DNA of 63,556 bases, the filler included, from Sphacelaria rigidula (taxonomy: Eukaryota), in NCBI GenBank assembly GCA_964200075.2. It is 6 parts of 6 records of this genome, joined end to end, with 100 filler letters (N's around TTAATTAATTAA, not from the genome) between each part and the next. Parts side by side here need not be neighbours in the genome. Positions count along the whole stretch, not along the records: positions 53,049 to 63,556 come from CAXNAA020006369.1; 5 more parts are not named here. One strand, written 5' to 3'. Positions 2,901-63,556 of the stretch are shown one piece after another. The position numbers were made by a program, and so were the translations under genes. The notes beneath the pieces are model-generated. The model had not been told where the DNA came from, did no database searches, and saw only the letters and a list, made by a program, of their open reading frames with translations. Every line of letters starts with the position of its first letter. The first letter of the stretch is position 1.

Positions 2901-3539
2901 ATTCCGTGATTCCAGTATAAAAGTCAAAGCATCGCATCGAAGACAGCAGCGTTCACAAAATACAACACACCTCGTAACGACGCATTGTCCTGTAGTCAGT
3001 GTGAACTGTTCAAACGCTGTTCCAGTTTCGCTCACGAATAAATGCAATATGCCCCCGCAGAGTGATATGGCAGTATTAGTTGAAACGGAAATACCCCGTC
3101 AACAGCAACAGCAGCCGTCGTAGAGTCACGCATAATAACCGAAGAAAACACTCGATCAACCGATGTACCCCAAGCGTTCACGCGCATCATCGTTGCAAGG
3201 ACGGTGTGCACATGGTCGGCAACAAATAGAACGGCAATGGTACAAATCGTCAACCCGTCGACCCGACATGTGAACCTGAAACGTAATACGATTTTAGGCT
3301 GTATCACCCCAGTACGAGAAATAAAACCAGCCACAGTCAGTGAGTGCAACGGCGGGAAATAAGGTGTGTGAGAGGGAAATTGCGAAAGAGGAATTACGTC
3401 CAACTTTACGCAAAGCTTTCGAAAATACGACCTTTTCCCCGGAACGATGCTCTCAAATACTGGATCTTTGCGCAAAATACCGTTCTGTGTTTTCACTTAC
3501 TCCGCAGGAGTTGGGCTGTTGTACGTAAGATGAAGCAAG

Positions 3540-4415
3540 TTTTCCGCTCAAACCTGGGACTCAGCCGGTAGACCGAGCTCCGTATAGAGCAAACCCCAGA
3601 GTGCACGACGCAATCGACAAGTGCGTCGACCAGATGGAAAAATATGGTATAATTGAACAACGCCCACGCCCGTGGGGATCAGCAGTTATAATAGTCGCAA
3701 AAGCAGACGGAACAGCACGATTTTGCGGAGATTATCGGGCAACGATAAATAAAAACTTGTTTCGCAAATCATGGCCCATGTCAGCTATCGAAAGTCACAT
3801 GGACACAGTAGCGGGGGCAAAATTCATAACAGTTTGCGATGTACAAAGTGCATTCCACCAGATACCAGTGGCGGCGAGCGAAAAAGGGAAAACAGCGTTC
3901 GTAACTGAAAGAGAGAAATGGGTGTTCAACCGTTCACCGTTTGGTTTAGCGTGTTCAACCTTTATCTTTTCACGCATAATGGCACTAGCATTTGCACACT
4001 TTGGACCCAAGAGTGGTTTACTGGTGTATATGGATGACATAATTTGTTGTTCATCAAGCTGGGAGAGTCATCTCACCCTACTAGAAAGCACGTTCAAAGC
4101 ACTGCAAACAGCAGGCCTCACACTAAAGCCGACAAAAATCCGATTTGGTCCAGAGCAGGTCAAATACTTGGGCCATGTACTGTCCGCAGATTACATCAGA
4201 GTGATGAAAGAATAAAAGCTATCCTCGACTTGCCAAAACCCACCAACATTAAAGAGTTGCGATCAGTACTCGTTACAATAAATTTCGTACGGAATTTCAT
4301 ACCAGACTTGGCTACAACCACAGCACTACTGGTAGATCTCACAAAAAAAGAGGCGGCAAAACAGGTGTCGAAACTCTGGAAAACTGAACATGAGGAAGCC
4401 TCCGAAAAAATTTAA
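3540..4415 (+). pseudogene. Gypsy reverse transcriptase, frameshifted
   Basis: PWGSAVIIVAKADGTARFCGDYR, CDVQSAFHQI, PFGL, VYMDDII, VKYLGH, PTNIKELRS. Confidence 0.96.
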
Positions 4416-4429
4416 AAATTGATGACCGA

Positions 4430-4810
4430 GGCACCCGCCCTTTATTCTTCAGATTTCACGAAATACTTCACCATCGAGGGGCCGGAGCCTATGTTTCCCA
4501 AAAGAAGGGCGAAGACGATTCAATCGTAGCATACTTTAGTCAACGCTTCAACGATGCCCAAGCCCGCTATTCGCCCACCATGAAAGAATGTTACGCGGTC
4601 GTACTAGCGATTCAACATTTTAGACCATTTTTGTGGGGACGTCACTTTACGTGTGTAACAGACCATGCCGCTCTTCGATATTTATATGCAATGCAAGATA
4701 CAAGTAATATGTTGACCCGGTGGGCGATCGCATTGCAGTCGTATGATTTTACGTTAAAACATAAGCCGGGGAAACTTCATGTTATACCGGACACCCTCTC
4801 ACGGCTGTTT
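4430..4810 (+). pseudogene. Gypsy RNase H, disrupted
   Basis: KECYAVVLAIQHFRPFLWGRHFTCVTDHAAL...RWAIALQSYDF...HKPGKLHVIPDTLSR. Confidence 0.95.
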
Positions 4811-5132
4811 GCGTTTGAAAAGCGACAGGAAGCGGAAATCAAGCCGTTGCTTGCGCCGATATGCCGTAACGTCCCAGAAGACCCTGAGTTACAAATAGCT
4901 GAGCCACAATATCAGTTCCAGATTTCAGCTGAGAAGCTTGACAATCTGAAACCGGTGCAAAGTGATCGAGAGTTGTTCACCGTGAAATCAGTACACGTAA
5001 GCGCAGCAAACGTCTTCACGCCAATCGAACGCAAAAAATTGCGAGTAAGAGCAAGCACTAGAGTACGGACCCTACATCCAATATGTCACGGAAAAAGATG
5101 CTCCGGTACCAGGAAAAGAATCGCTCACATCG

Positions 5133-6025
5133 ATGTCACATTATTCAGTACATGACGGGATTTTATTCAAGTCTTACTTGCCGGAACACTTGAAAAAACG
5201 AAGCACAGTTTGTGAACAACTTGTGCTACCGAAGACCCTAGTAGGCTTGGTGCTACATTCGTACCACGACCATGCACTATCCGGGGGCCACTTAGGATTC
5301 AAGCGAACATACGACAAGATCGGACCGAAATATTATTGGCCATCAATCAACGGCGATGTAAGGATTGGTGCTTGAAATGTCAAAGTTGCCAACGCCGAAA
5401 GACGCCCCGCCGGCAAAAATTGCCAATGGGACATGCTCCTGTAGAAAGGCCATATGAACGAGTGTCGGTTGACCTGGTTGAATACAAAACGGCTTCAATG
5501 TCCAACGCCGGAGTAATATGCACATACGTACTGTCAGTAATGGACCACCTCACAAGGTATGCTTTGCTCATTCCAGTCCCGAATAAACAAGCCACGGCGA
5601 TAGCCAAAACCCTTATCGACAGAGTTTTCACGACATTTGGCATCCCAATGAAGCTTCACAGCGACCAGGGCGCCGAGTTCGAGAACAAATTAATATACGC
5701 ACTGCAACAGGAGTTGGGTTTCAATAGAACTCGTACGACACCACTACGTCCGCAAGGTAATTCAGTGTCGGAACGCGTCCACTCCACTGTGCACGCGATG
5801 TTAGCTATGCATATGTCAGTCGGAAACAAAAACTGGGCATCCATGCTTCCATTCGTCCAAATGACCTACAACACCTCTTATCATGATACGGTACAAGAAA
5901 CACCGTATTTTTTGTTGTTCGGAAGACAGCCCAGGTTGCCAATTGATATTATTCTCGGCATTCCCGAAGAGAGCCAAGCAGCAACGCCCGAAGAATTTTC
6001 CAAAGAAACGCGACAAAACCTATAG
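5133..6025 (+). pseudogene. Gypsy integrase (HHCC and DDE core), frameshifted
   Basis: HDHALSGGHLG...YYWPSI, CLKCQSCQRRK, VSVDLV, MDHLTRY, HSDQGAEFEN, PQGNSVSERVH, TPYFLLFGR. Confidence 0.96.
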
Positions 6026-10511: not shown

Positions 10512-10611
10512 NNNNNNNNNNNNNNNNNNNNNNNNNNNNNNNNNNNNNNNNNNNNTTAATTAATTAANNNNNNNNNNNNNNNNNNNNNNNNNNNNNNNNN
10601 NNNNNNNNNNN
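10512..10611. other. Artificial scaffold-concatenation linker
   Basis: N44-TTAATTAATTAA-N44 (stops in all six frames). Confidence 0.98.
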
Positions 10612-21121: not shown

Positions 21122-21221
21122 NNNNNNNNNNNNNNNNNNNNNNNNNNNNNNNNNNNNNNNNNNNNTTAATTAATTAANNNNNNNNNNNNNNNNNNNNNNN
21201 NNNNNNNNNNNNNNNNNNNNN
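21122..21221. other. Artificial scaffold-concatenation linker
   Basis: N44-TTAATTAATTAA-N44. Confidence 0.98.
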
Positions 21222-31731: not shown

Positions 31732-31831
31732 NNNNNNNNNNNNNNNNNNNNNNNNNNNNNNNNNNNNNNNNNNNNTTAATTAATTAANNNNNNNNNNNNN
31801 NNNNNNNNNNNNNNNNNNNNNNNNNNNNNNN
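31732..31831. other. Artificial scaffold-concatenation linker
   Basis: N44-TTAATTAATTAA-N44. Confidence 0.98.
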
Positions 31832-42340: not shown

Positions 42341-42440
42341 NNNNNNNNNNNNNNNNNNNNNNNNNNNNNNNNNNNNNNNNNNNNTTAATTAATTAANNNN
42401 NNNNNNNNNNNNNNNNNNNNNNNNNNNNNNNNNNNNNNNN
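42341..42440. other. Artificial scaffold-concatenation linker
   Basis: N44-TTAATTAATTAA-N44. Confidence 0.98.
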
Positions 42441-52948: not shown

Positions 52949-53048
52949 NNNNNNNNNNNNNNNNNNNNNNNNNNNNNNNNNNNNNNNNNNNNTTAATTAA
53001 TTAANNNNNNNNNNNNNNNNNNNNNNNNNNNNNNNNNNNNNNNNNNNN
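52949..53048. other. Artificial scaffold-concatenation linker
   Basis: N44-TTAATTAATTAA-N44. Confidence 0.98.
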
Positions 53049-53107
53049 AAAAGAGAAGAAAAAAAAAGCGAGGGAGGGGGAGGGGGGGAGGGGGGGGGGG
53101 TGGGGGT

Positions 53108-53138
<31 letters not shown>

Positions 53139-53864
53139 CTACATATCATCACGTTAGACTATCCACACATACCCGCCGACAAAAAATAATTGTTGATAGC
53201 ATGATCGGTTCCGGTATGGTTCATCATAAACGGATCTTCAGAGGGCCTACACTCCCGCGACGTCTCACCCAGCGAGGGCAACACAGATCGTGGCTTACTT
53301 TACCTAGGGCTGGACCCTTCGCGCACCCCTTGCTTCAGGGTCCTCCGTGCAAATTAGGCTGGGGTTTTGATAAGGAATACAGTCATGATCATCAGCGAAA
53401 AACATATATATTTAGGCAGCAGCTGTCGCGCAGGATCCACGCGAACAATTCCCCCGTAAACTTTACACGTCACAAAAACCCGACAAGGGTTTGAAGAGAA
53501 ATCTGAAAAGGCTCTTCGATCTCACAGACCATCATTACCCCACCCCTACCCGGGCTTCATGTATTATGGCCATGCTCCTTACTCGAGTTTGGCGACGAGC
53601 TCCCCGCCCCAAAATCCTTCTTTCTTATCATGTAAATTCTACAGTGGCGAAAAAGCATCTCGTCATGTCATCATCCACCTCTGTTCGAGTAATGTAACGT
53701 CATACTGCTTACGGGAGTTCGGTGGGGGGACTCCCCTTCCCCCCCCCTCATCGCCGTCCGACGATCGCCCCTGGTCTTCCCTTCCAGCACTACCTCTCCA
53801 ACTCCACTCCACAAGACGTATTTCACGTACGTCCCATGAACCCCGACAGAGTAAAGGCTATCCC

Positions 53865-54230
53865 TGGCGGCACCGGACATACGAGAACTTCTGTCGGCGG
53901 CGGAAATACGGCAAATTCCGGCGGCGGCGAAAATACGGAATCTCTGGCGGCGGAGGGCATACGACATCTCTGGCGGCAACGAAAACAACGCGATGTTCTC
54001 GAAAGCAGCGGAAACACGAGAATTGCCCGGTGGTACTCCTAGCGAACACACGGAAATTTCTGGCGGGAACGATAGTACGGAAAAAGTGTTTCTGACGGGA
54101 GTCAAAAACCCGATTTTTTTCTTGGCGCGATAGAAACGACATTGAGCGAAGATATCTGACGTCAGCGGAAAAATGCGGAAATAATAGGCCATTGCAACAT
54201 TACGGAAACTTTGGCGGTGGCGAAGATGCG
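53865..54230 (+). repeat. Degenerate ~25-bp tandem array (TCTGGCGGCGG..AATACGGAA)
   Basis: More than eight recognisable units. Confidence 0.7.
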
Positions 54231-54718
54231 CTAGTGCTTGGAGCTGGAAGGCGCTCGGGCGAGCACGCCACAACGACGGCTTGGAATCCGGTTCGGGTTT
54301 TGGAATTTTCTTCACACAAACAGCCACGTACCCCTCCCCGCCCCATCAATGTTCGTTGAACTAACGAGTACCGTGCACTCGGTTCCAGTATTTGGAATTC
54401 TTGTTTGCGCTTGCTCCATATTTCCATACGAGAAATGGAGGAAAATGAAACAACCAACCATGTAATGTTGGCGAAAATTCGAACATCATGCTGAAACGAA
54501 AAAAAAACACAGTCAAAACATGAAGAAATATTCCGAAGGAATGGATGTCGGCAACCATTGATGGCCTTTTTCACATATAACAAAAGGGAACCCTGGGGCA
54601 ACAACGGGTGAACCTTCTTGACCATTTTGGAACCCTTCGGAGCCCTTGCGCTCTACACGACCAAATCGTTTTTCACCGACTCTGTTCCTTTTATCACTAG
54701 TGCCAGACTCGTGAGGGA

Positions 54719-54875
54719 GGAATCAAGCATGTGTTCCCTCGCCGATTTGTGGGAGAAAAGAACAAAAACGGGTGTACCCGGGAGTGCGAAATTATCGGGT
54801 AAGGAATTAAGCATGTGTTCCCTCGCCTATTTGTGCGAACAAGGCAGAAGCGGGTGTACCCGGGAATGCGAAATT
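54719..54875 (+). repeat. 84-bp tandem duplication
   Basis: GGAAT.AAGCATGTGTTCCCTCGCC.ATTTGTG...CGGGTGTACCCGGGA.TGCGAAATT at 54719 and 54803. Confidence 0.88.
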
Positions 54876-55674
54876 CATCTTGACTCCTCGAGCTGGGATA
54901 AAAGGAAACAAAACGAAACACACAAAGCGAACCTTTTCGACAACAGGAGAAAAAGAAAAAAAAGGGTAGAAATCAGGCGTTTTCAATTCCTATCCCCTCC
55001 GAGCGTATCAATCAACCCACGTGTTGGGTATATAGCCCAAGGAGGGTGATATCCACGGCGTGCTGTTGGTCAGGGCACATCTTTGTGGATTTAATTCGCC
55101 GCGCCCGGTGGAGAAGTTGGAAAGTGATGCTTTATCGACCAGCTCGGGTGAACGTAGGAGATTCGAATCTCGACAGCAATAGTTTAGTTTTTCGTGGTTC
55201 TCGTCGTCAAAAGCATGAGATGGCGTGGGTTTCATGACAAGAAAAAAAAAATCGAAAATCGATGGTCTGTGAGAGTAGTCATGATTCAGTACGTCATGAC
55301 GACCCGCAAGGCAGGTAGGTACTGGGGGAGAGATATATGATTAGTTGGCTGGTTTATGGGGACTTTGCACTCGTCACGAAGAAGGGGGGGGGCTACGAGG
55401 GGTGAAAAAAAAGTGGAGGAACATGATACATGAAAAGATGAAAAAGAGTGGGAAAAAAAAGGAAAAAAAAAGACGGAGGGATTGAGAAAAATGGATGGAA
55501 GAACTGAAGGAGAAAAATTGGGTATGGATGGACTAGAAGAAAAAAGAGAAAAAAAAAGGATGGAGGGACTGAGAGGAATGAAACACGGGAAAAAAAAAGG
55601 AAAAATAATCATGGGCAAGCGAGGGGGCGAATAAACAAACACGCGGACGCAAGAGGATAAAAGGACAGACTTAC

Positions 55675-55832
55675 CACTAATAACTGCACGACACTCCCAC
55701 TGAGCAGGCGCGCCGCCCATGAGACAATCTGTTTCCACCAAATAAGTGCCCATGGCCGTTCGCTTTACACCCGTAACTGTCACCGGACGTACCACGTCTA
55801 GCTTCATCACCGACTCGTACTCTTCCATGTAC
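55675..55832 (-). CDS. Exon 3 of an ArsO/CzcO-like flavin-dependent monooxygenase
   Basis: cag|G YMEEYESVMKLDVVRPVTVTGVKRTAMGTYLVETDCLMGGAPAQWECRAVIS+G|gtaagt. Ends just before the expected ATG motif (RAVIS-ATG). Confidence 0.88.
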
Positions 55833-57199
55833 CTGAAAAAAACGTGACAGGACCATACACACAGCAGAGCAGAGGCAACAAGAAGTGAGATCAAAGTGCA
55901 ATCACAGCACAGATGAATCAAGCCCGAAACAATGTTGTGGAGAGCCCCGTTCTTGATGTTCCTCGGGTTCTCTTCATCCGGGTCCTCCACATGGCATCCA
56001 CGAGAGAAGTCATACCTCACGATGCAGGTTAACCGCAGGCAAGAGATGGATCAACTCCGTGAAAGACTGTGGTGACTTGAGATGCCTACCAGCGCCGCTG
56101 TAGAAATCCAAGAAAATGACACGCTCTGGACAAAGTCAATCCCTGTCAATATATTACGTCGGGTCAAAAAGTATACTCCGTACAGTATCGACTCTTTCGT
56201 CCATTGCAACAGACAGGAGATTATATACTACACGCAGTGCATTTTGTGACGACGTAATATCCTGTCCAGGGTGTGGAAAATGACAGTAACGTCCTTGTCT
56301 CCGCGGCAAATGCGCATAGACCATTTTGTATGACCTCCACAAAAACGAATGTATACGCCGATAAGGGGACCTCGAATCGGGGAACGCCTTCGATAAACCC
56401 CAACTTGGTCCAAATCAGGGTAGCTCAGATTCGTATTTCACGATTTGAGAACAGTTTTCCACGAATCTGAGCACAGATCGGGGGGCAAATCGAGGACCCC
56501 CGGATATGTAGGAAGTGACGTACGTACATTGACGGACGGTGATAGGGCAACAGGCGTTTCGTATTATTGCAACCGCAGCAGCAGCAGAAAGTCTCCTGAC
56601 AGCATGGGCCGTGACTGCCAGCGGCAGCTGCTCAAGGAGTTTCGCACGCGGTTCGACAAGCGGATAAGAAGTGTTCACACCGTACCCTGCGGCGATGGTG
56701 ATATATTATGCTGCACTGCGCAGCTGTATGTACAGCTGTATGTACGATCATAATGAACGGTGCTGTACTATTCTACACTCTGCTGTCGCGGTACTTGCAG
56801 AGTGATGAACGGCACTGGACTCGTGAACTCTTGTCGCACACTTTTGTGCACTGTTCTCGCAATCCCGACTAAACCACCATATATCACCACACGACATTAT
56901 CGTGTTCGGTGACAGTGGAGTGTAGTGCACTAATTATAACCTCGGAAACGGTACCACGCTGCTCTCGAAGCATGATTCAATCGTCTGCCTGTTCCTTGGC
57001 TTCACTGGTGTCATACCACACCCGTGAAGAGACACCACGACCCTCAGTGTGAACGACTATTTCAAAACATTTGTGAAGCCGTTAACATGATCGTGAGGGA
57101 CACACGGGTTCAAAGTTCCACGAATCTGAGTTTCCTCGTTTTGGCACAGATTGGGGTCCCGCCAGATCCGGGATTGGTGCACATGAAAAATGGTCTCAC

Positions 57200-57339
57200 A
57201 TCGCCATTTCTCGAGTGCTGGGGTAACCATCCTCGCATGCACCATTGGCGAACATAGGATATCCGGGCAGAGAGCTCCACTTCCTCGTCGAGAATAGCTG
57301 TAGCGACGGCCATCGGTGTCGCCATGCACCTCCGGGCTC
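57200..57339 (-). CDS. Exon 2 of the ArsO/CzcO-like flavin-dependent monooxygenase
   Basis: cag|[46 protein letters not shown]+AT|gtgaga. AT plus G of exon 3 gives Met. Confidence 0.9.
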
Positions 57340-57767
57340 CTGTTGTCCGTGTGAGTGTGTGTGGAGGGAGGGGGGTGTACTCAATCCTTGCTTGCCGTAG
57401 TTGTTTGAGCGTTGACCACACATACCTTTTGAGATGGAGCTCTTTTTCCACTGCCAACAGAAAGAAATCTACAACATTCGCGCGCTCATCAAGTTTGCAT
57501 CGCTCCTACTTCTAATAGAGAGAACAAAAACGTTTACTTCAAGAGGAACGATTTGGGAACGGAGAAAAAAAATGGCTCATTTCCCTTCTTTTCCCCCAAA
57601 GGAGGAAAACTTCAGAAACGAACGGACAGTGGGTGGCGTTGTTGTGTCTAGTATGTTTAATTTTCGCTAGCTCGCTTGTTCGTTTCGCTCTTTTTTCTGC
57701 TCTGCTCCATCGTCTTCTTGCTCCGTTCCGTTTTCAGTCGGTGTTTGCCCCCTGTGTCAAAACCCAC

Positions 57768-58364
57768 CTGATTAGCGTCAAGGGTCACAAACCGAAGTCC
57801 CCCAGCCTTCTGCAAGTGGTACGCTACGGAGAGCCCCGCTTGTCCTGCTCCGATGACAACGGCATCTACTCTCGTGGGCGACGGAGCCGCATCAGCCCAC
57901 TGGCGCACGGTACCGTTCGACAATCCCACCGCCGGACGGGCAGATGAAGATCCATATCCTCGCGTAGCTCCGATAGATTTTTCAACGGAGTTCTTTCTCC
58001 TCTCGGGGGCCGCATCGACGGCTCTGTTTTCTCCGACGGATCCATTTCCAACAACGGATTGCTGCAATTTTCCGGATTTTCCGTCGTTGTTGAATGACAG
58101 TGATCCGACATTTTTCCTCTCGGTGCTGGTGCGGCTCTGCGCTATCGGAACAACATGTAGATTGCGCTCTTGTTGAATATTAGCAGTGGCGGATTTCTCC
58201 GACCGAGTCGGAGTTGACGCCGGGATAGTTGACGGGTTAGTGGTTGAGGCGACGGAGGCGTGTCGGCTCTGGTGACTGTTGTGATGCGAAAACGTAGTTC
58301 TGGCAGTTTTAGCGGGAACCCGTAGTCTCACGATGAAGTGTTGGCGAAGGAGGACTGTAGACAT
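57768..58364 (-). CDS. Exon 1 of the ArsO/CzcO-like flavin-dependent monooxygenase (N-terminal extension and FAD-binding Rossmann motif); start codon tentative
   Basis: MSTVLLRQHFIVRLRVPAKTARTTFS...[35 protein letters not shown]|gtgggt; GxGxxG dinucleotide-binding motif. Confidence 0.85.
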
Positions 58365-61300
58365 GTGCTGGCTGTTTATGAAGGTTTTTGACCGTTTTCC
58401 TCGAGGGTGTTTCGAGATGTTTGTAGTAAAATGAACCGGCAAAACGCCTTGTTTTTTCCAAGTATTTTTCTTCCCTACACTCACGTGTGTGCTTGTTTTT
58501 TTATCCGTTTGTTGGGTAGGTCTTGGTTGACCTGTGGCGGCGACCGGCGTGAGCAGCCGAAGCGGAAGCAGTCGCAGCAAAGCGGCGAAAAAACAGAACA
58601 GAAACGATGACGAGGCAAGGCGGCAGAAACACAGCAGGGAACGCCCGACATGAAAAACATCCTTTTAGAACCCACGTTTATTACCTTCGAACGTCGAAAA
58701 CCATTATCGTACGCTAAAACGTCAAGGCGTTATTTTTGTTCTTGAGCACATTCGAGGGAGTAGGAGTTCGGAACAGCTACTGGTGAAGGAACAACGCCTC
58801 CTTGTAAGGCCTTTGCCACGCATTCAACAAGCGTCGTCATGTGTCCCCACAGTGGCCGCAGCCAGCAAGATTCTGATCATGACGACTGGTCGGTCCAAGA
58901 CGCACAATTTTGCACGTCAACGTCGTCATCCAAACCGATTTCCTGTACAGACACACATCGCATCCACGATCCACGGCTGTATTCATCGATCGGTTGCAAG
59001 GTTCCGTGGTGATCACTCCGTTGACAGTCGATAGAGGTCGTTCTTTCGACAGCAGGGGCTTGCACGTCCCTAGAGGAAGTCGAGCTCGGAAATGACGTTC
59101 ATCAGGCTAGTGTACTGTGAGAGGGAGGAAGGTGCGGTGTCGACACATTCAAAAAGTCGAGCCAGCGCAAATCCAACTTTTGGGAAAAGGCACGATCTGT
59201 TCACACGTTTCACCACTCAACTATACGCAGAGGCCCAAAACCTTCCAACTTCTTACCCCTACCCCACGTACACAAACACCAGCGTGGACTGCAGTGTACA
59301 GGGTACGAGTGTACACTGGTGTGCTGCAAAAAAGTCCTCATGAGGAAGGACGGAAACGATTATTTCGTGATGGAGATTCTGCACGAATAGCGGAACTGGC
59401 GAGTGCAAAAAGCACGCACACAGTGTACCGACTGCGGTAGCAGTGTAAGCTAGGGTGTTTGACGTTCCTCCTCGACATGCGCCTACTGTACCCGGCGGCT
59501 ATCAAGCTTAGGATAGGGAGCGGGGTCTGTATGGGGTGGTGATGGGCTTTACCGACGATGACATGTCGAGTACAGTCAGTGTATCTGTCGACATCGGTGA
59601 AAACGTCATCCGACCAATAGCTGAAAACAAACTCCAGGAACACGTCAGCTGGATGTTGCACGTGACTACTGTAAGGGGGAGTCCGCCTGTACGCAGTTGA
59701 TTCACTACTCTCTGTCCACACAAAGGTACCGACCAAAATATTCTACATATATTGCGTACAGACAGTACTCATGCTGCACATGCTGACCGTACAGTAGTAG
59801 TACCTCAAAGTCTCTGTCTGCGCAGCGATGAAAACAGACAGTAACACGTACGGGATCCACCACCCGTTCAACTTTCAAGCTCTGAGGGAAACACCACCTT
59901 TCCATCAACTGCACCCGTCGTACCATCCCACTACAACTTGGTACAGTCAAAATGCTGTAGTGTGCCTTAGCCGGTCGAGAAGAGCTGCAACACGACTACT
60001 GTATATACACTCGTAAAACACACCAGTTGTGTACAAGTATGGTGAAACACTAAGCTCGTTTTTCATGCCTCTTGTCCGTACCATGAGATGGTGTGCTGCC
60101 TTTAAACACAAAGACGTCACGATACGGTCGGATTTGTTCAATCCCATGCAGGCTACGTGAAGGACGTACACGTGAAGAGCACCTCGACTTGGCATTATCC
60201 TCGACGTACTCATGGAAGGGAAAGGAACAGTCCGCCAAAGTCGTCTTGGTATCACGGCAGGCACTTGTGCAGGCGATGGCGGTGACCGACATACACTGAG
60301 TGCAAATAATCTACTGTCTACGTCTACGGGATGCAGTACTTGTGTACTCTGTTCGCTGGTGTGCACATTGGGTAGGGCACAGTCAGTTCAGACGGGTTGA
60401 ACGTACACTCCTGCACTGTTGACTGATCGCAATGCACTTTGCGTAACCACTCAGTAGTGTGGCCGATACACGACCTACCTGGCTTTCGACTTGATAACAC
60501 GTCTGATCACCTGTACAGCACACGGTTCCCGGCACGGTGTACGGTACTGTAGAATCTGTGAGGCCGCGTGTACAGACTAGTAGTCGAGAGCACTCTGCAG
60601 TGCGGTGCTGACACGAATGTGAAGCGGCGTTTTTCAAAACGTTTCGGGGGCGGACGTGTTTCTCGCACAGGAAACACGCACGGACCACGAAGTGCGTCTC
60701 TACACACGTACGCAGAGGCAGAGATGAAGAAAACAGTGAGGCGGGGAACAGCCGCCAAATCAACTGATGTACGGGAAATGAAGGATATGGCGCCATCGGT
60801 GCGTGCAGCGGTTGTTCGTTTTCATGATGAACAAGAGTGCATCAGAGGTAGTGCCTCGAACAAACCATACAGAAGGAAAGTTCAGACAGTACGGGACACA
60901 GACAACGAAACCTGTTTTGTATAACAGAACGGTATCGGGAACACATCCCACATGGTACGCTGACACTAAAAGTTCAACGTGTTGGCCGGCCATGGTACGG
61001 AAGGCTGTTGAAAGTCTTAGAGCACGTGATAGCTGTATGTACAATAGAGAGACATGCTCGAAACATCGAGCTTCTGTTATACTCACAGCTTCTACGTCGT
61101 TCCTTGTACCGGTACGTGTCTTGCTTGTAGCACACCAGCGGCTACCTAGGGAGGGGGTCGGGCTGAACCTGATGTGGACGGTTTTGACGTTTTGACTGTT
61201 TGATGCGGTGGCATTTTTGGGTGTTGCGGTTGTTTTTGCAAGAGTACTTTCCCTGCAAAAACAAAATAAAAAACAAATAGACTATTCTACTCCATTGTAC

Positions 61301-61957
61301 TGTCGGGTCATCATTTTTTTCCCTTGATTCGAGTAGGAAGTGCAAAAAAAACTTCTGTTCAATAGTTGACAATACCTGCTGACGCAGATAGCGCGGGCTG
61401 TGTACATGATGCGCGTTCAACATTTTCCTCCGACGGTCAATTTGCTACTCTCTCCGATGAAAAACGCATCCCTGAGCTGTGAGGGGAGCACACGTACGAA
61501 TAAAATATCAACAGAGAAGTCTGCTGACCCTCTTTGCTATTGTACATTGCATGTCGTACACAATTTCTGTTTCATCATCGTGTGGCCAACTCCACGAACT
61601 GTCTCTTGTTGCTGGACAACCAACCATTCATATTCTTTGTTGAACGATGATGGATATCGAAAAAGATGGGCGCATACCTATCCTAGTTTTGAGTTATCGA
61701 ACGGAGACGGAGATACCAATTGAAATGTGAACCTATGTGAACCGCAATTTTTTGGCCAGTGTATGACAGAGTGTTCTAGATTCGACGACAGTGTGGATAG
61801 GTGCAGCGCTGGGCGCACACGGAGTCCAACGCCTCAAGTTCTATCGTGCTCAATCACGGGCATGGAAGCCCAGACAAGGAGCATATGATACCTCTGGCAC
61901 CCTACAGAGTAAGTACGCCACTACACTGATTGTGCGATGACTGTGATTGAACCAATC

Positions 61958-61985
<28 letters not shown>
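61958..61985 (+). repeat. (GA)n microsatellite
   Basis: Direct inspection. Confidence 0.9.
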
Positions 61986-61989
<4 letters not shown>

Positions 61990-63556
61990 CACACCGTATC
62001 AGCTTCATGCAAAAATGGTGTTCAGATCTCCGCGCCGTGGACGTGATGGACCTTGCTGAGATAGATGTACGATACGCTCGTGACAACCTGGATAACTCGT
62101 GGTTCTTCTATTGCATGACGCGCATGCAGTCATGCTCGGTGGTTGGCCTACATCGTACACACATACACAGCATCACTGGTCGAGCATTACGTAAATATCA
62201 TACCAGCTCTAGTGAAGCCGTGCCGAATAGTCCAGTGCTTCGTCACTCGATTTGGGGTGCGGCCAATGTACGCTTAGAACACAGTACTGTACTTCAAACC
62301 CAAAATGTCTTTTCCACAGCATCTCTGCATGATTGGAACCCTGCGCCTGCCCCCCCTCCTCTAGCCCCTATCCCCCTCAAGTCAAGGACGAATATACATC
62401 ATACCTAGGCTCACCTGTACGATACTTGTTGAAGCGCCGCGGTCACTTACGTCAAATGAATATTCTTCGGCTGAGTTGCCACTTATGCTGCTGTATGCTC
62501 TGTGTGCTGTGTACGGTGTGAGAACGTGTACAGTATGAGATGTGTTTTTGTATTTGTATCTGAGGTGTTGTTCTGAGATTACTTCAAAATGACCTACGGA
62601 TTGTACTGATATACCGAATGTGAATGCTGCGATTCAGACAGTGAACCCCAACTAATCAAAGGAGGTGTTATGCACCATCATCTACGGTTTGGATTTAAAC
62701 TGTTAGTATTTTGGGGCACGAGACTGCACCCAAAAATATCTTTATTCCTCCTCGAGTTTTGAAAATGGATATGGCGATCGTCACCTTGGCCACGAGGCAA
62801 GGCACCATCACTTTGACATCTTACGTGCAGTGCTGTTAGTAGAAATCACACAATCTCTCGGCAGCGTTTATGCAGCGTGAATGCTCGAGGGATACAGATC
62901 GGCGGTGCAGACGAGCATGTGAGGTATTTGGTGTGCTGCACTGTTGTCTGTTGTCATGTCACCAAGCTCAGGACTTCACGCTGGTATACGGTATACTGTA
63001 CCGACCTTCCTCAGTGAAGTGCAGTAGCTTACCATGTCGTACCGTACAACAAGGTAAATTACAGTAGGTGCAGTAATCGACCCCGCTTTCCAGGCGTGAA
63101 TCGCCTTTGCTATGACTACGAGTACGCCGCCAGCAAATTACACCAAGCGTGTTGGCAGATCGTGACGCCCGGCAACAGGCAGTAACACTAGGCTCCATCG
63201 TGAGGACGAGCTTTGATCGGATTGTTTTACAGAGATGGCATGTCCCTACCACAGCACGGTACGGTACTATTGTTTGTGTTGATACTGTTGATACGCGCGC
63301 GATTTGAAAAGCTGCAATGCAGTTGTCGTGTTTTGTGCCCGCACACCAACGATCGCCGGTGTGCAAGGTGCTAGCCAGTGAGTGCACTTGGTGAGCCGCT
63401 GTTGACACCAGAGGCACTCCCACTCCCATCACAGGACAAGGGGGGGCGTTCTCATAAAGGGGGGGGGGGGGGGGGGGGTTATTTTTTAATGGGCGGGGTG
63501 TTTGTCGCCCCATTTTTTGTGGTATAAAGAGAGGAGATGATTAATTGTGAAAACAA

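Follow-up and report, generated by a model that had tools for sequence, protein, structure and literature searches.

The closest solved relatives of the gene reported here are SMFMO, CFMO and PSFMO, bacterial 'type II' flavin-containing monooxygenases (FMOs) of 357-361 residues that contain flavin adenine dinucleotide (FAD) and are built of two Rossmann domains with the FXGXXXHXXXY motif; as set out in PMC4220118, they work with either NADH or NADPH, and their substrates are prochiral sulfides, which they oxidise. A second group is that of ArsO, whose genes occur in ArsR-ACR3-ArsC clusters at four of four loci examined (pSinA of Sinorhizobium sp. M14, Streptomyces sp. FR-008, Rhodococcus ruber and Acinetobacter ursingii) and which is itself termed 'putative' in the literature consulted; another flavin monooxygenase, ArsV, makes cells resistant to MAs(III), Rox(III) and Sb(III) according to the abstract of 10.1101/2021.08.12.456183. 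Here we describe the 5' part of a related gene from the brown alga Sphacelaria rigidula, located on the minus strand of one contig in a 63,556-nucleotide stretch of assembly GCA_964200075.2 (the window). The gene is spliced, continues into a fourth exon, has ArsO as its nearest named family and has orthologues with all catalytic motifs, within a eukaryote clade that is nested among bacteria. We regard it as very probably an expressed nuclear gene for a two-Rossmann, FAD-containing, NAD(P)H-dependent class B monooxygenase (type II FMO/ArsO-like) of probable bacterial origin and predicted organellar location.

The coding sequence starts at the ATG at 58364 and comprises three exons joined in frame at GT-AG sites (Table 1). 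The original prediction had proposed this structure from the sequence alone, and on direct reading all of its coordinates and quoted peptides are correct. Exon 1, whose start MSxxLxR is common to the orthologues, encodes a basic, Ser/Thr-rich and acid-poor N-terminal extension (residues 1-165), followed from residue 166 by the FAD-binding Rossmann fold. The two N-terminal class B motifs, GAGQAG for FAD and PGGAW (GGxW) in exon 2, both lie within the window. When the pSinA ArsO protein was searched by tblastn against the whole window, the only credible matches were these three exons (ArsO residues 7-38, 35-82 and 84-128; E values of 3e-7, 4e-8 and 0.008), with 64% identity for exon 1 and 50% for exon 2. 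Taken alone, exons 1 and 3 each find the NCBIfam ArsO family NF040505 as their best match in that collection (profile 1-32, E 3.2e-6, and 79-123, E 5e-4); exon 2 as sole query gave no matches in a protein word-index search, the PDB or plasmids (tblastn), being too short to be informative.

Splicing was read from four public sequencing runs, X1, X5, X7 and X8, aligned on 53049-60500. Runs X5, X7 and X8 each yielded one contig of 947-1153 nucleotides at a depth of 209-242 that skips from 55830 to 57198 (cut +2) and from 57338 to 57767 (cut +1). The skipped segments end CT..AC on the plus strand, which is GT..AG on the gene strand, and with the cut shifts they correspond to the junctions 57200|55832 and 57768|57339, the two that had been predicted. 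Both joints are present in three of these three runs, which come from one study, and neither occurs in X1, the sole run of the four holding all sampled words of the stretch; from this difference we conclude that both introns are removed in transcripts. Towards the 5' end the spliced contigs reach 58416 (X8), 58519 (X7) and 58535 (X5). The X5 contig also runs on past 58535 for another 87 letters that have no counterpart in the genome at that place, next to a CAG at 58534-58532; these are possibly an upstream non-coding exon, or the contig may be chimeric.

At the other end, all three spliced contigs continue past 55675 with the same 29 loose letters, for which the window holds no match at up to 3 mismatches. 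Translated by hand together with the phase-1 G that closes exon 3, they read AAGTHSAPVW, at the position of the class B 'ATG' linker, and match VISAAGTHASPVW of Cladosiphon and Ectocarpus. A fourth exon therefore exists off the gene's contig, and it carries the ATG linker that had been expected downstream. The intervening sequence is itself partly transcribed: 53148-55704, on the intron 3 side, is covered at about one-fifth of exon depth, with values of 36-48 in X5 and X8 across most of 53298-55538 as against 209-242 for the exon contig; introns 1 and 2 have far less coverage than this part of intron 3. In X5 only, the letters that follow 55675 also stand, 30 of them, loose before 53713, pointing to a second donor joined to the same next exon. 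The intron 3 coverage and the donor at 53713 could be incompletely spliced (retained-intron) or alternatively spliced RNA that reaches a stop.

The rest of the protein lies beyond the contig. The window is a chain of six separate contigs set in order of descending length (10511, 10510, 10510, 10509, 10508 and 10508 bases) and joined by artificial linkers of the form N44-TTAATTAATTAA-N44, with stops in all frames. The contig of the flavin monooxygenase gene spans 53049-63556; the linker at 52949-53048 marks its end, just inside which is a poly-C run at about 53081-53140. Since these linkers separate unrelated contigs, a feature that seemingly spans one is an artefact, a caution that applies to any finding crossing a linker in this window. 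A motif scan and tblastn over the window, including some 55 kb that appear to lie downstream, found no homology to the NAD(P)H domain (ArsO residues 129-347), because the gene's contig stops 2.6 kb past exon 3 at the artificial linker; the C-terminal half is thus off the scaffold, as the original prediction had it, with the contig ending at 53049. A truncated gene had first been inferred from the missing C-terminal half, and was dropped because the N blocks are contig linkers and the transcript contigs enter a further exon.

The gene is already in public records, unnamed and, in Sphacelaria rigidula, truncated. P0013, the 427-residue entry deposited as 'unnamed protein product [Sphacelaria rigidula]', comes from a contig of 10508 bases, agrees with exon 1 at every residue (100% identity) and uses the same three exons, then reads 128 codons (residues 300-427) through unspliced intron 3 to a stop. 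This tail (GKSVLLSS...VVMTY; window positions 55286-55674, in the open reading frame (ORF) at 55286-56050) is proline- and phenylalanine-rich and of low complexity. Since the transcript contigs splice at 55675, the deposited C terminus is false: the public gene model ends in 128 residues of intron sequence, an artefact of the contig break.

Orthologues are on record from Ectocarpus (636 and 599 residues), Undaria (640), Cladosiphon (526 and 632) and Laminaria (partial), as well as from the early-branching brown algae Choristocarpus (418 residues, partial) and Discosporangium (307, partial). The window core, which has neither stops nor frameshifts, is 87% identical to Ectocarpus. The position of intron 1 is conserved: 15 of 15 unspliced genomic ORFs of related organisms leave the homology right after DANQ, with a 'V' read from the GT, and the boundaries of exon 2 recur in one unspliced ORF from another species (P0020), which re-enters at EPGG and stops after GEMAM. 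In the alignment the orthologues carry FRGTQIHSSQY, G[AS]GNSGAQ, IWCTGY and GYGNWAG, and all aligned full-length ones have both FxGxxxHxxxY/F and the second, NAD(P)H-binding GxGxxG/A; the Sphacelaria counterparts lie off the contig, and of exon 4 the first 10 residues have been read. Behind GYGxW, 110-114 residues follow in the Undaria, Ectocarpus and Cladosiphon proteins (P0014, P0021 and P0197), ending ...RVSVAA or ...RVMAA, and 27-47 in Phaeothamnion, an MMETSP protein and Chromosphaera. The presequence is separated from the Rossmann fold by a highly variable linker of low complexity, which is about 100 residues long and far shorter in Choristocarpus and Discosporangium.

To place the protein in a family we compared scores against NF040505, an equivalog of 346 positions with a curated cut-off of 425 bits. 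Three full-length orthologues score 323.9, 326.0 and 328.4 bits over profile 1 to 341-344, the partial Choristocarpus protein 310.5 (1-303) and P0013 124.7 (E 5.7e-36, profile 1-124), while the pSinA ArsO control scores 547.9. The brown-algal orthologues thus match ArsO end to end as their best family and stay below its cut-off; the next-best NCBIfam family reaches 95-110 bits, about one-third of the ArsO score. In Pfam, Pyr_redox_3 scores 86-91 bits, and FMO-like (PF00743) 39-43 bits over profile 142-214 of 532 only; we found neither a full-length PF00743 match nor a grouping with eukaryotic FMOs or YUCCAs. The nearest solved structures are the compact bacterial 4A9W, 4C5O (SMFMO), 4USR and 4USQ, matched over the whole core at 233-241 bits (E 2e-70 to 8e-68; for 4A9W, 241 bits and E 2.3e-70, query 74-437 against chain 3-347). 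Baeyer-Villiger monooxygenases (BVMOs) reach at best E 3e-17 and solved FMOs E 5e-13 or worse, both over the N-terminal half only. The earlier view that the protein is of ArsO type rather than an animal FMO or YUCCA holds as to its nearest family, by roughly threefold in bits and by its nearest structures, and falls short as to membership in the ArsO equivalog itself.

Comparison with each group sharpens this picture. Over profile 1-344 of 346 the algal proteins align from end to end with ArsO of pSSFR1 (Streptomyces sp. FR-008) and pSinA; identity between the window core and pSinA ArsO is 49%, and the algal and ArsO proteins have GxGxxG, PGGAW, SLxLFS..WSSLPG, FxGxxxHSxxY, GGGNSGAQ, IWCTG[FY] and GYGNW[TA]G in common. 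In contrast to ArsO, the algal gene is eukaryotic, has introns, lies outside an ars operon and scores 311-328 rather than 548 bits; its product is extended at the N terminus by about 50-190 residues and carries a C-terminal tail after GYGxW in Undaria, Ectocarpus and Cladosiphon, and its 'ATG' linker reads S-A-[AST]-G-T-H, against S-[AT]-T-G-[TS]-W in ArsO. SMFMO, CFMO and PSFMO, the closest solved relatives, resemble the algal proteins in their two Rossmann domains and FMO motif but are bacterial and lack terminal extensions. The phosphate-recognition pair also differs: it is Gln-His, Ser-Thr or Gln-Glu in the solved enzymes (Gln193-His194 in SMFMO) and Met-Asp, Leu-Thr, Leu-Glu, Asp-Arg, Ala-Lys or Ser-Lys in the eukaryote clade, where the Arg-Thr couple of NADPH-specific enzymes is never present, an observation that is only suggestive about the use of NADH or NADPH. 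Animal FMOs, plant YUCCAs and BVMOs have the FAD/NADPH Rossmann motifs and the FMO motif in common with the algal gene, with an FMO-like segment of about 65 residues, but are proteins of 425-550 residues, similar to it in the N-terminal half only (E 3e-17 to 1e-6), and do not group with it.

An exhaustive HMMER search that took the Cladosiphon orthologue as query and covered 1.84 billion representatives returned 8945 matches at E <= 1e-3 and 127 at E <= 1e-30. After the brown algae the best matches are Phaeothamnion confervicola (52% identity) and an MMETSP transcript (49%), followed by proteins of about 350 residues at 35-47%. Non-algal eukaryotes among the relatives looked up are the ichthyosporean Chromosphaera perkinsii and, with a distant protein, Chromera velia. 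The remaining relatives with organism names are bacterial: ArsO-family proteins from Staphylococcus and Actinomycetales, and 'NAD(P)-binding' proteins from Actinokineospora, Fodinicola, Saccharomonospora, Gordonia, Georgenia, Conyzicola, a Propionibacteriaceae metagenome-assembled genome and Corynebacterium. Ten of 68 scored representatives, the closest bacterial matches included, pass the ArsO cut-off.

We then consider the maximum-likelihood tree (69 rows, 355 columns, LG+C20+F+G4; unrooted), from which representatives shorter than 300 residues, partial or two-stretch matches (P0045, P0059, P0074, P0095, P0108 and P0126 among them), the second Ectocarpus protein P0018 and all unspliced genomic ORFs were left out. 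Within the brown algae, the window fragment groups with Undaria, Ectocarpus and Cladosiphon (100/98); the brown algae form one clade (100/94) with Phaeothamnion as sister (100/99), and the addition of the MMETSP protist, P0030 and Chromosphaera gives a eukaryote clade supported at 100/100. This clade is nested in a bacterial group that contains the ars-operon ArsO proteins (91/87), itself within a larger bacterial group (100/99), and every named relative in the tree outside the eukaryote clade is bacterial. Among 136 further representatives, 11 lean to the eukaryote references, mostly brown-algal fragments. The tree nominally pairs the eukaryote clade with an actinobacterial one (88/92; Streptomyces, Actinokineospora, Saccharomonospora and others) that, like the algal proteins, scores below the ArsO cut-off (241-359 bits) but lacks LFS..WSSLPG, has WATGF for WCTG and is without the NW[TA]G insertion. 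Since this tentative sister is without motifs that both the eukaryotes and ArsO proper have kept, we assign no bacterial donor lineage. Two protist sequences bear on the spread of the family: the Chromosphaera perkinsii protein P0031, inside the algal clade, lacks the segment from the ATG linker to FxGxxxH, maybe through a gene-model error, and together with the more distant P0074 of the alveolate Chromera velia it hints at a patchy distribution among protists.

The gene is probably an old bacterial acquisition, judging from this phylogeny. The sequence of events would be one bacterium-to-eukaryote acquisition before the split of brown algae and Phaeothamnion, with later gain of introns, of an N-terminal presequence and linker, and of a C-terminal tail. 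An old transfer from a bacterium to an alga, with introns gained afterwards, had been suggested before; the nesting among bacteria bears out the transfer, and the date has to be moved back, because Phaeothamnion and two non-ochrophyte eukaryotes fall in the same clade, so that the acquisition predates the brown algae. In the literature on brown algae, Ectocarpus and stramenopiles dealing with horizontal gene transfer (HGT), arsenic or type II FMOs, no description of the gene was found; the Phaeoexplorer preprint lacks 'arsen' and has 'monooxygenase' only for YUC, and its supplementary HGT lists, which were outside the search, may include the orthogroup.

The N terminus suggests where the protein would act. 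In 9 of 11 algal and MMETSP N termini, the first 40 residues contain 3-8 Arg and Lys, no Asp or Glu and about 5-10 Ser and Thr, the first acidic residue stands at 46-81 and the maximum hydropathy over 11 residues is 1.0-1.8. Two N termini depart from this, both of unnamed ORFs, with 1-2 acidic residues and, in one of them, a hydropathy of 0.58. The Chromosphaera protein is without the extension and has 3 acidic residues. By composition the extension is presequence-like and lacks a signal-peptide-like hydrophobic core, and import into ochrophyte plastids requires such a core. The predicted location is an organelle, most likely the mitochondrion.

As for chemistry, NAD(P)H would reduce the FAD, O2 would form a C4a-(hydro)peroxyflavin, and this would oxygenate a soft nucleophile. 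Sulfides are the demonstrated substrates of the solved homologues; only the name ArsO suggests trivalent As or Sb compounds as a possibility.

The most serious rival to this reading makes the algal protein a true ArsO in function too: it would detoxify antimonite or trivalent arsenicals, in the way reported for ArsV, and would have been recruited because brown algae accumulate arsenic. ArsO is indeed the nearest named family, the closest bacterial matches by score (P0026-P0029, P0032 and P0033) exceed its cut-off at 431-545 bits, and the eukaryote clade retains the SLxLFS..WSSLPG, IWCTG and GYGNW[TA]G of ArsO proper, whose genes sit in arsenic operons at every locus mentioned above; the resistance given by ArsV lends the idea an analogy. 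Set against this are the algal scores of 311-328 bits, the 'putative' standing of ArsO itself and, as described in PMC4220118, the oxidation of thioethers by the solved homologues. Genomic context points the same way. With the pSinA ars proteins as probes, we searched 80 loci from the actinobacterial sister clade over 8 kb to either side: ACR3, ArsC, ArsR and ArsK were found at none of the 80 loci, with one weak ArsH-like match, whereas the same probes recovered ACR3 and ArsC in three of three control loci. The conserved neighbours in the sister clade are instead YceG, an ABC transporter and UPF0047, as judged from tblastn counts of reference ORFs and a Pfam scan of 12 ORFs (7 of them without a family). 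The window contains no ars partner gene either, although none would be expected of a eukaryote. We therefore consider a true ArsO unlikely, and the earlier idea of a role in arsenic handling gains no support from our analysis: an arsenic role of the algal enzyme is possible but unsupported. That a mitochondrion-targeted ArsO-type descendant in brown algae and PX-clade relatives still acts on trivalent organo-arsenicals or antimonite is, in our judgement, quite unlikely; if true, methylated As(III) would be oxidised in the organelle, contributing to seaweed arsenic tolerance and arsenic chemistry.

Rather than by lateral transfer into an ochrophyte ancestor, the gene might have come down vertically, from an ancient eukaryotic gene or the mitochondrial endosymbiont, and been lost in most eukaryotes. 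A single eukaryote clade that spans ochrophytes and an ichthyosporean, with a distant member in Chromera velia, would suit such a history, and a likely mitochondrial presequence would fit an endosymbiont-derived gene; but only a handful of the best 150 of the 1.84 billion representatives are eukaryotic, no plant, animal or fungal name occurs among the 30 relatives looked up, the clade lies inside the bacterial radiation (91/87, 100/99) and not beside it, and the tree shows no specific affinity to alphaproteobacterial ArsO, which makes vertical descent decidedly improbable. Still less probable is a truncated or decaying copy that retains the N-terminal third only and gives a non-coding transcript. 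The lack of homology to ArsO residues 129-347 anywhere in the window, the low-complexity read-through tail of the public model and the transcription of the retained stretch 53148-55704 could be read in that sense, but the genomic contig breaks off at an artificial linker 2.6 kb further on, the dominant transcript contig (depth 209-242) is spliced at 55675 to letters encoding the motif expected next, and the core, 87% identical to Ectocarpus, has an intact reading frame. Bacterial contamination of the algal assembly, which a bacterial nearest family might evoke, has a negligible chance of being right and is already refuted by the removal of two spliceosomal GT-AG introns in transcripts; orthologues with the same intron position in many brown algae and a eukaryote-type N-terminal extension of 165 residues also stand against it.

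The reading we prefer, an expressed nuclear monooxygenase gene acquired from bacteria, has points against it as well. Runs X5, X7 and X8 all belong to one study and are only presumed to be RNA, for which their spliced contigs are the argument; none of the runs listed as containing the stretch is on record as RNA. These are Logan contigs, and transcript ends and levels lie beyond what they show. The window itself covers 134 residues of the catalytic core, so that claims about the NAD(P)H domain draw on the orthologues and the 10-residue read of exon 4. Catalysis by members of the eukaryote clade is predicted from sequence, and the mitochondrial location is a best guess from composition. With regard to origin, the 88/92 grouping with actinobacteria conflicts with the motifs that eukaryotes have in common with ArsO proper, the root of the unrooted tree might conceivably lie on the eukaryote stem, and the clade's ichthyosporean and MMETSP protist members may stem from more than one transfer or from contaminated data sets.

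Unremarkable in appearance but of evolutionary interest, this member of the ArsO-like/type II FMO group is conserved across brown algae, from the earliest-branching Discosporangium and Choristocarpus to kelps, and is also present in Phaeothamnion. If our reading holds, a bacterial detoxification-type flavoenzyme has turned into a conserved nuclear gene with introns, a presequence and tails. It offers a concrete test of an ArsO-like enzyme in the arsenic or sulfur chemistry of seaweeds and supplies a eukaryotic comparison group for ArsO.

Table 1. Features of the monooxygenase gene and of the window around it; positions count along the window.
Feature	Position	Strand	Details
5' untranslated region	58365..58535	-	reach of the spliced contigs; without upstream ATG
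Exon 1, 199 codons	57768..58364	-	ends ...FVTLDANQ, then donor GTGGGT
FAD dinucleotide-binding motif GAGQAG (GxGxxG)	57834..57851	-	motif scan; N-terminal matches to Pfam DAO, NAD_binding_8 and Pyr_redox_3
Intron 1, 428 nt, GT..AG	57340..57767	-	ends CAG at 57340; absent from spliced contigs of X5, X7 and X8
Exon 2, ...YPSTREMA(M)	57200..57339	-	GGxW and LFS/WSSLPG signature; phase 2 end (..GCG AT), then GTGAGA
Intron 2, 1367 nt, GT..AG	55833..57199	-	ends CAG at 55833; absent from spliced contigs
Exon 3, (M)YMEEYESVMKLDVVRPVTVTGV...QWECRAVIS + phase-1 G	55675..55832	-	first G completes the Met codon, then YMEEYES; donor GTAAGT next
Part of intron 3 on this contig	53049..55674	-	donor GTAAGT at 55674
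Possible alternative 5' splice site CTCCC|GTAAGC	53708..53713	-	one contig of run X5 only
N-block linkers	10512-10611, 21122-21221, 31732-31831, 42341-42440, 52949-53048		N44-TTAATTAATTAA-N44

Three further observations concern the surroundings of these genes. On pSSFR1 of Streptomyces sp. FR-008 (locus L083, 9499-12080), the founding arsO has as direct neighbours the genes for another ArsO-like oxidoreductase (full-length identity to pSinA ArsO 37%), one more NAD(P)-binding protein and an MFS transporter resembling ArsK, so that this ars island contains a tandem set of paralogous flavoenzymes. Within intron 2 of the Sphacelaria gene (bins 56037-57281), the depth of run X1 climbs from about 70 to 258-1603 in many short high-depth pieces; the intron holds DNA repeated many times in the genome, presumably a small transposable element. 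On a different contig of the window, 3532-6025 on the plus strand encodes, in that order and in three frames, RVT_1 (E 3e-24), RNase H (E 4e-27) and the rve integrase core (E 5e-11), and is a degraded long terminal repeat retrotransposon of the Ty3/gypsy type.

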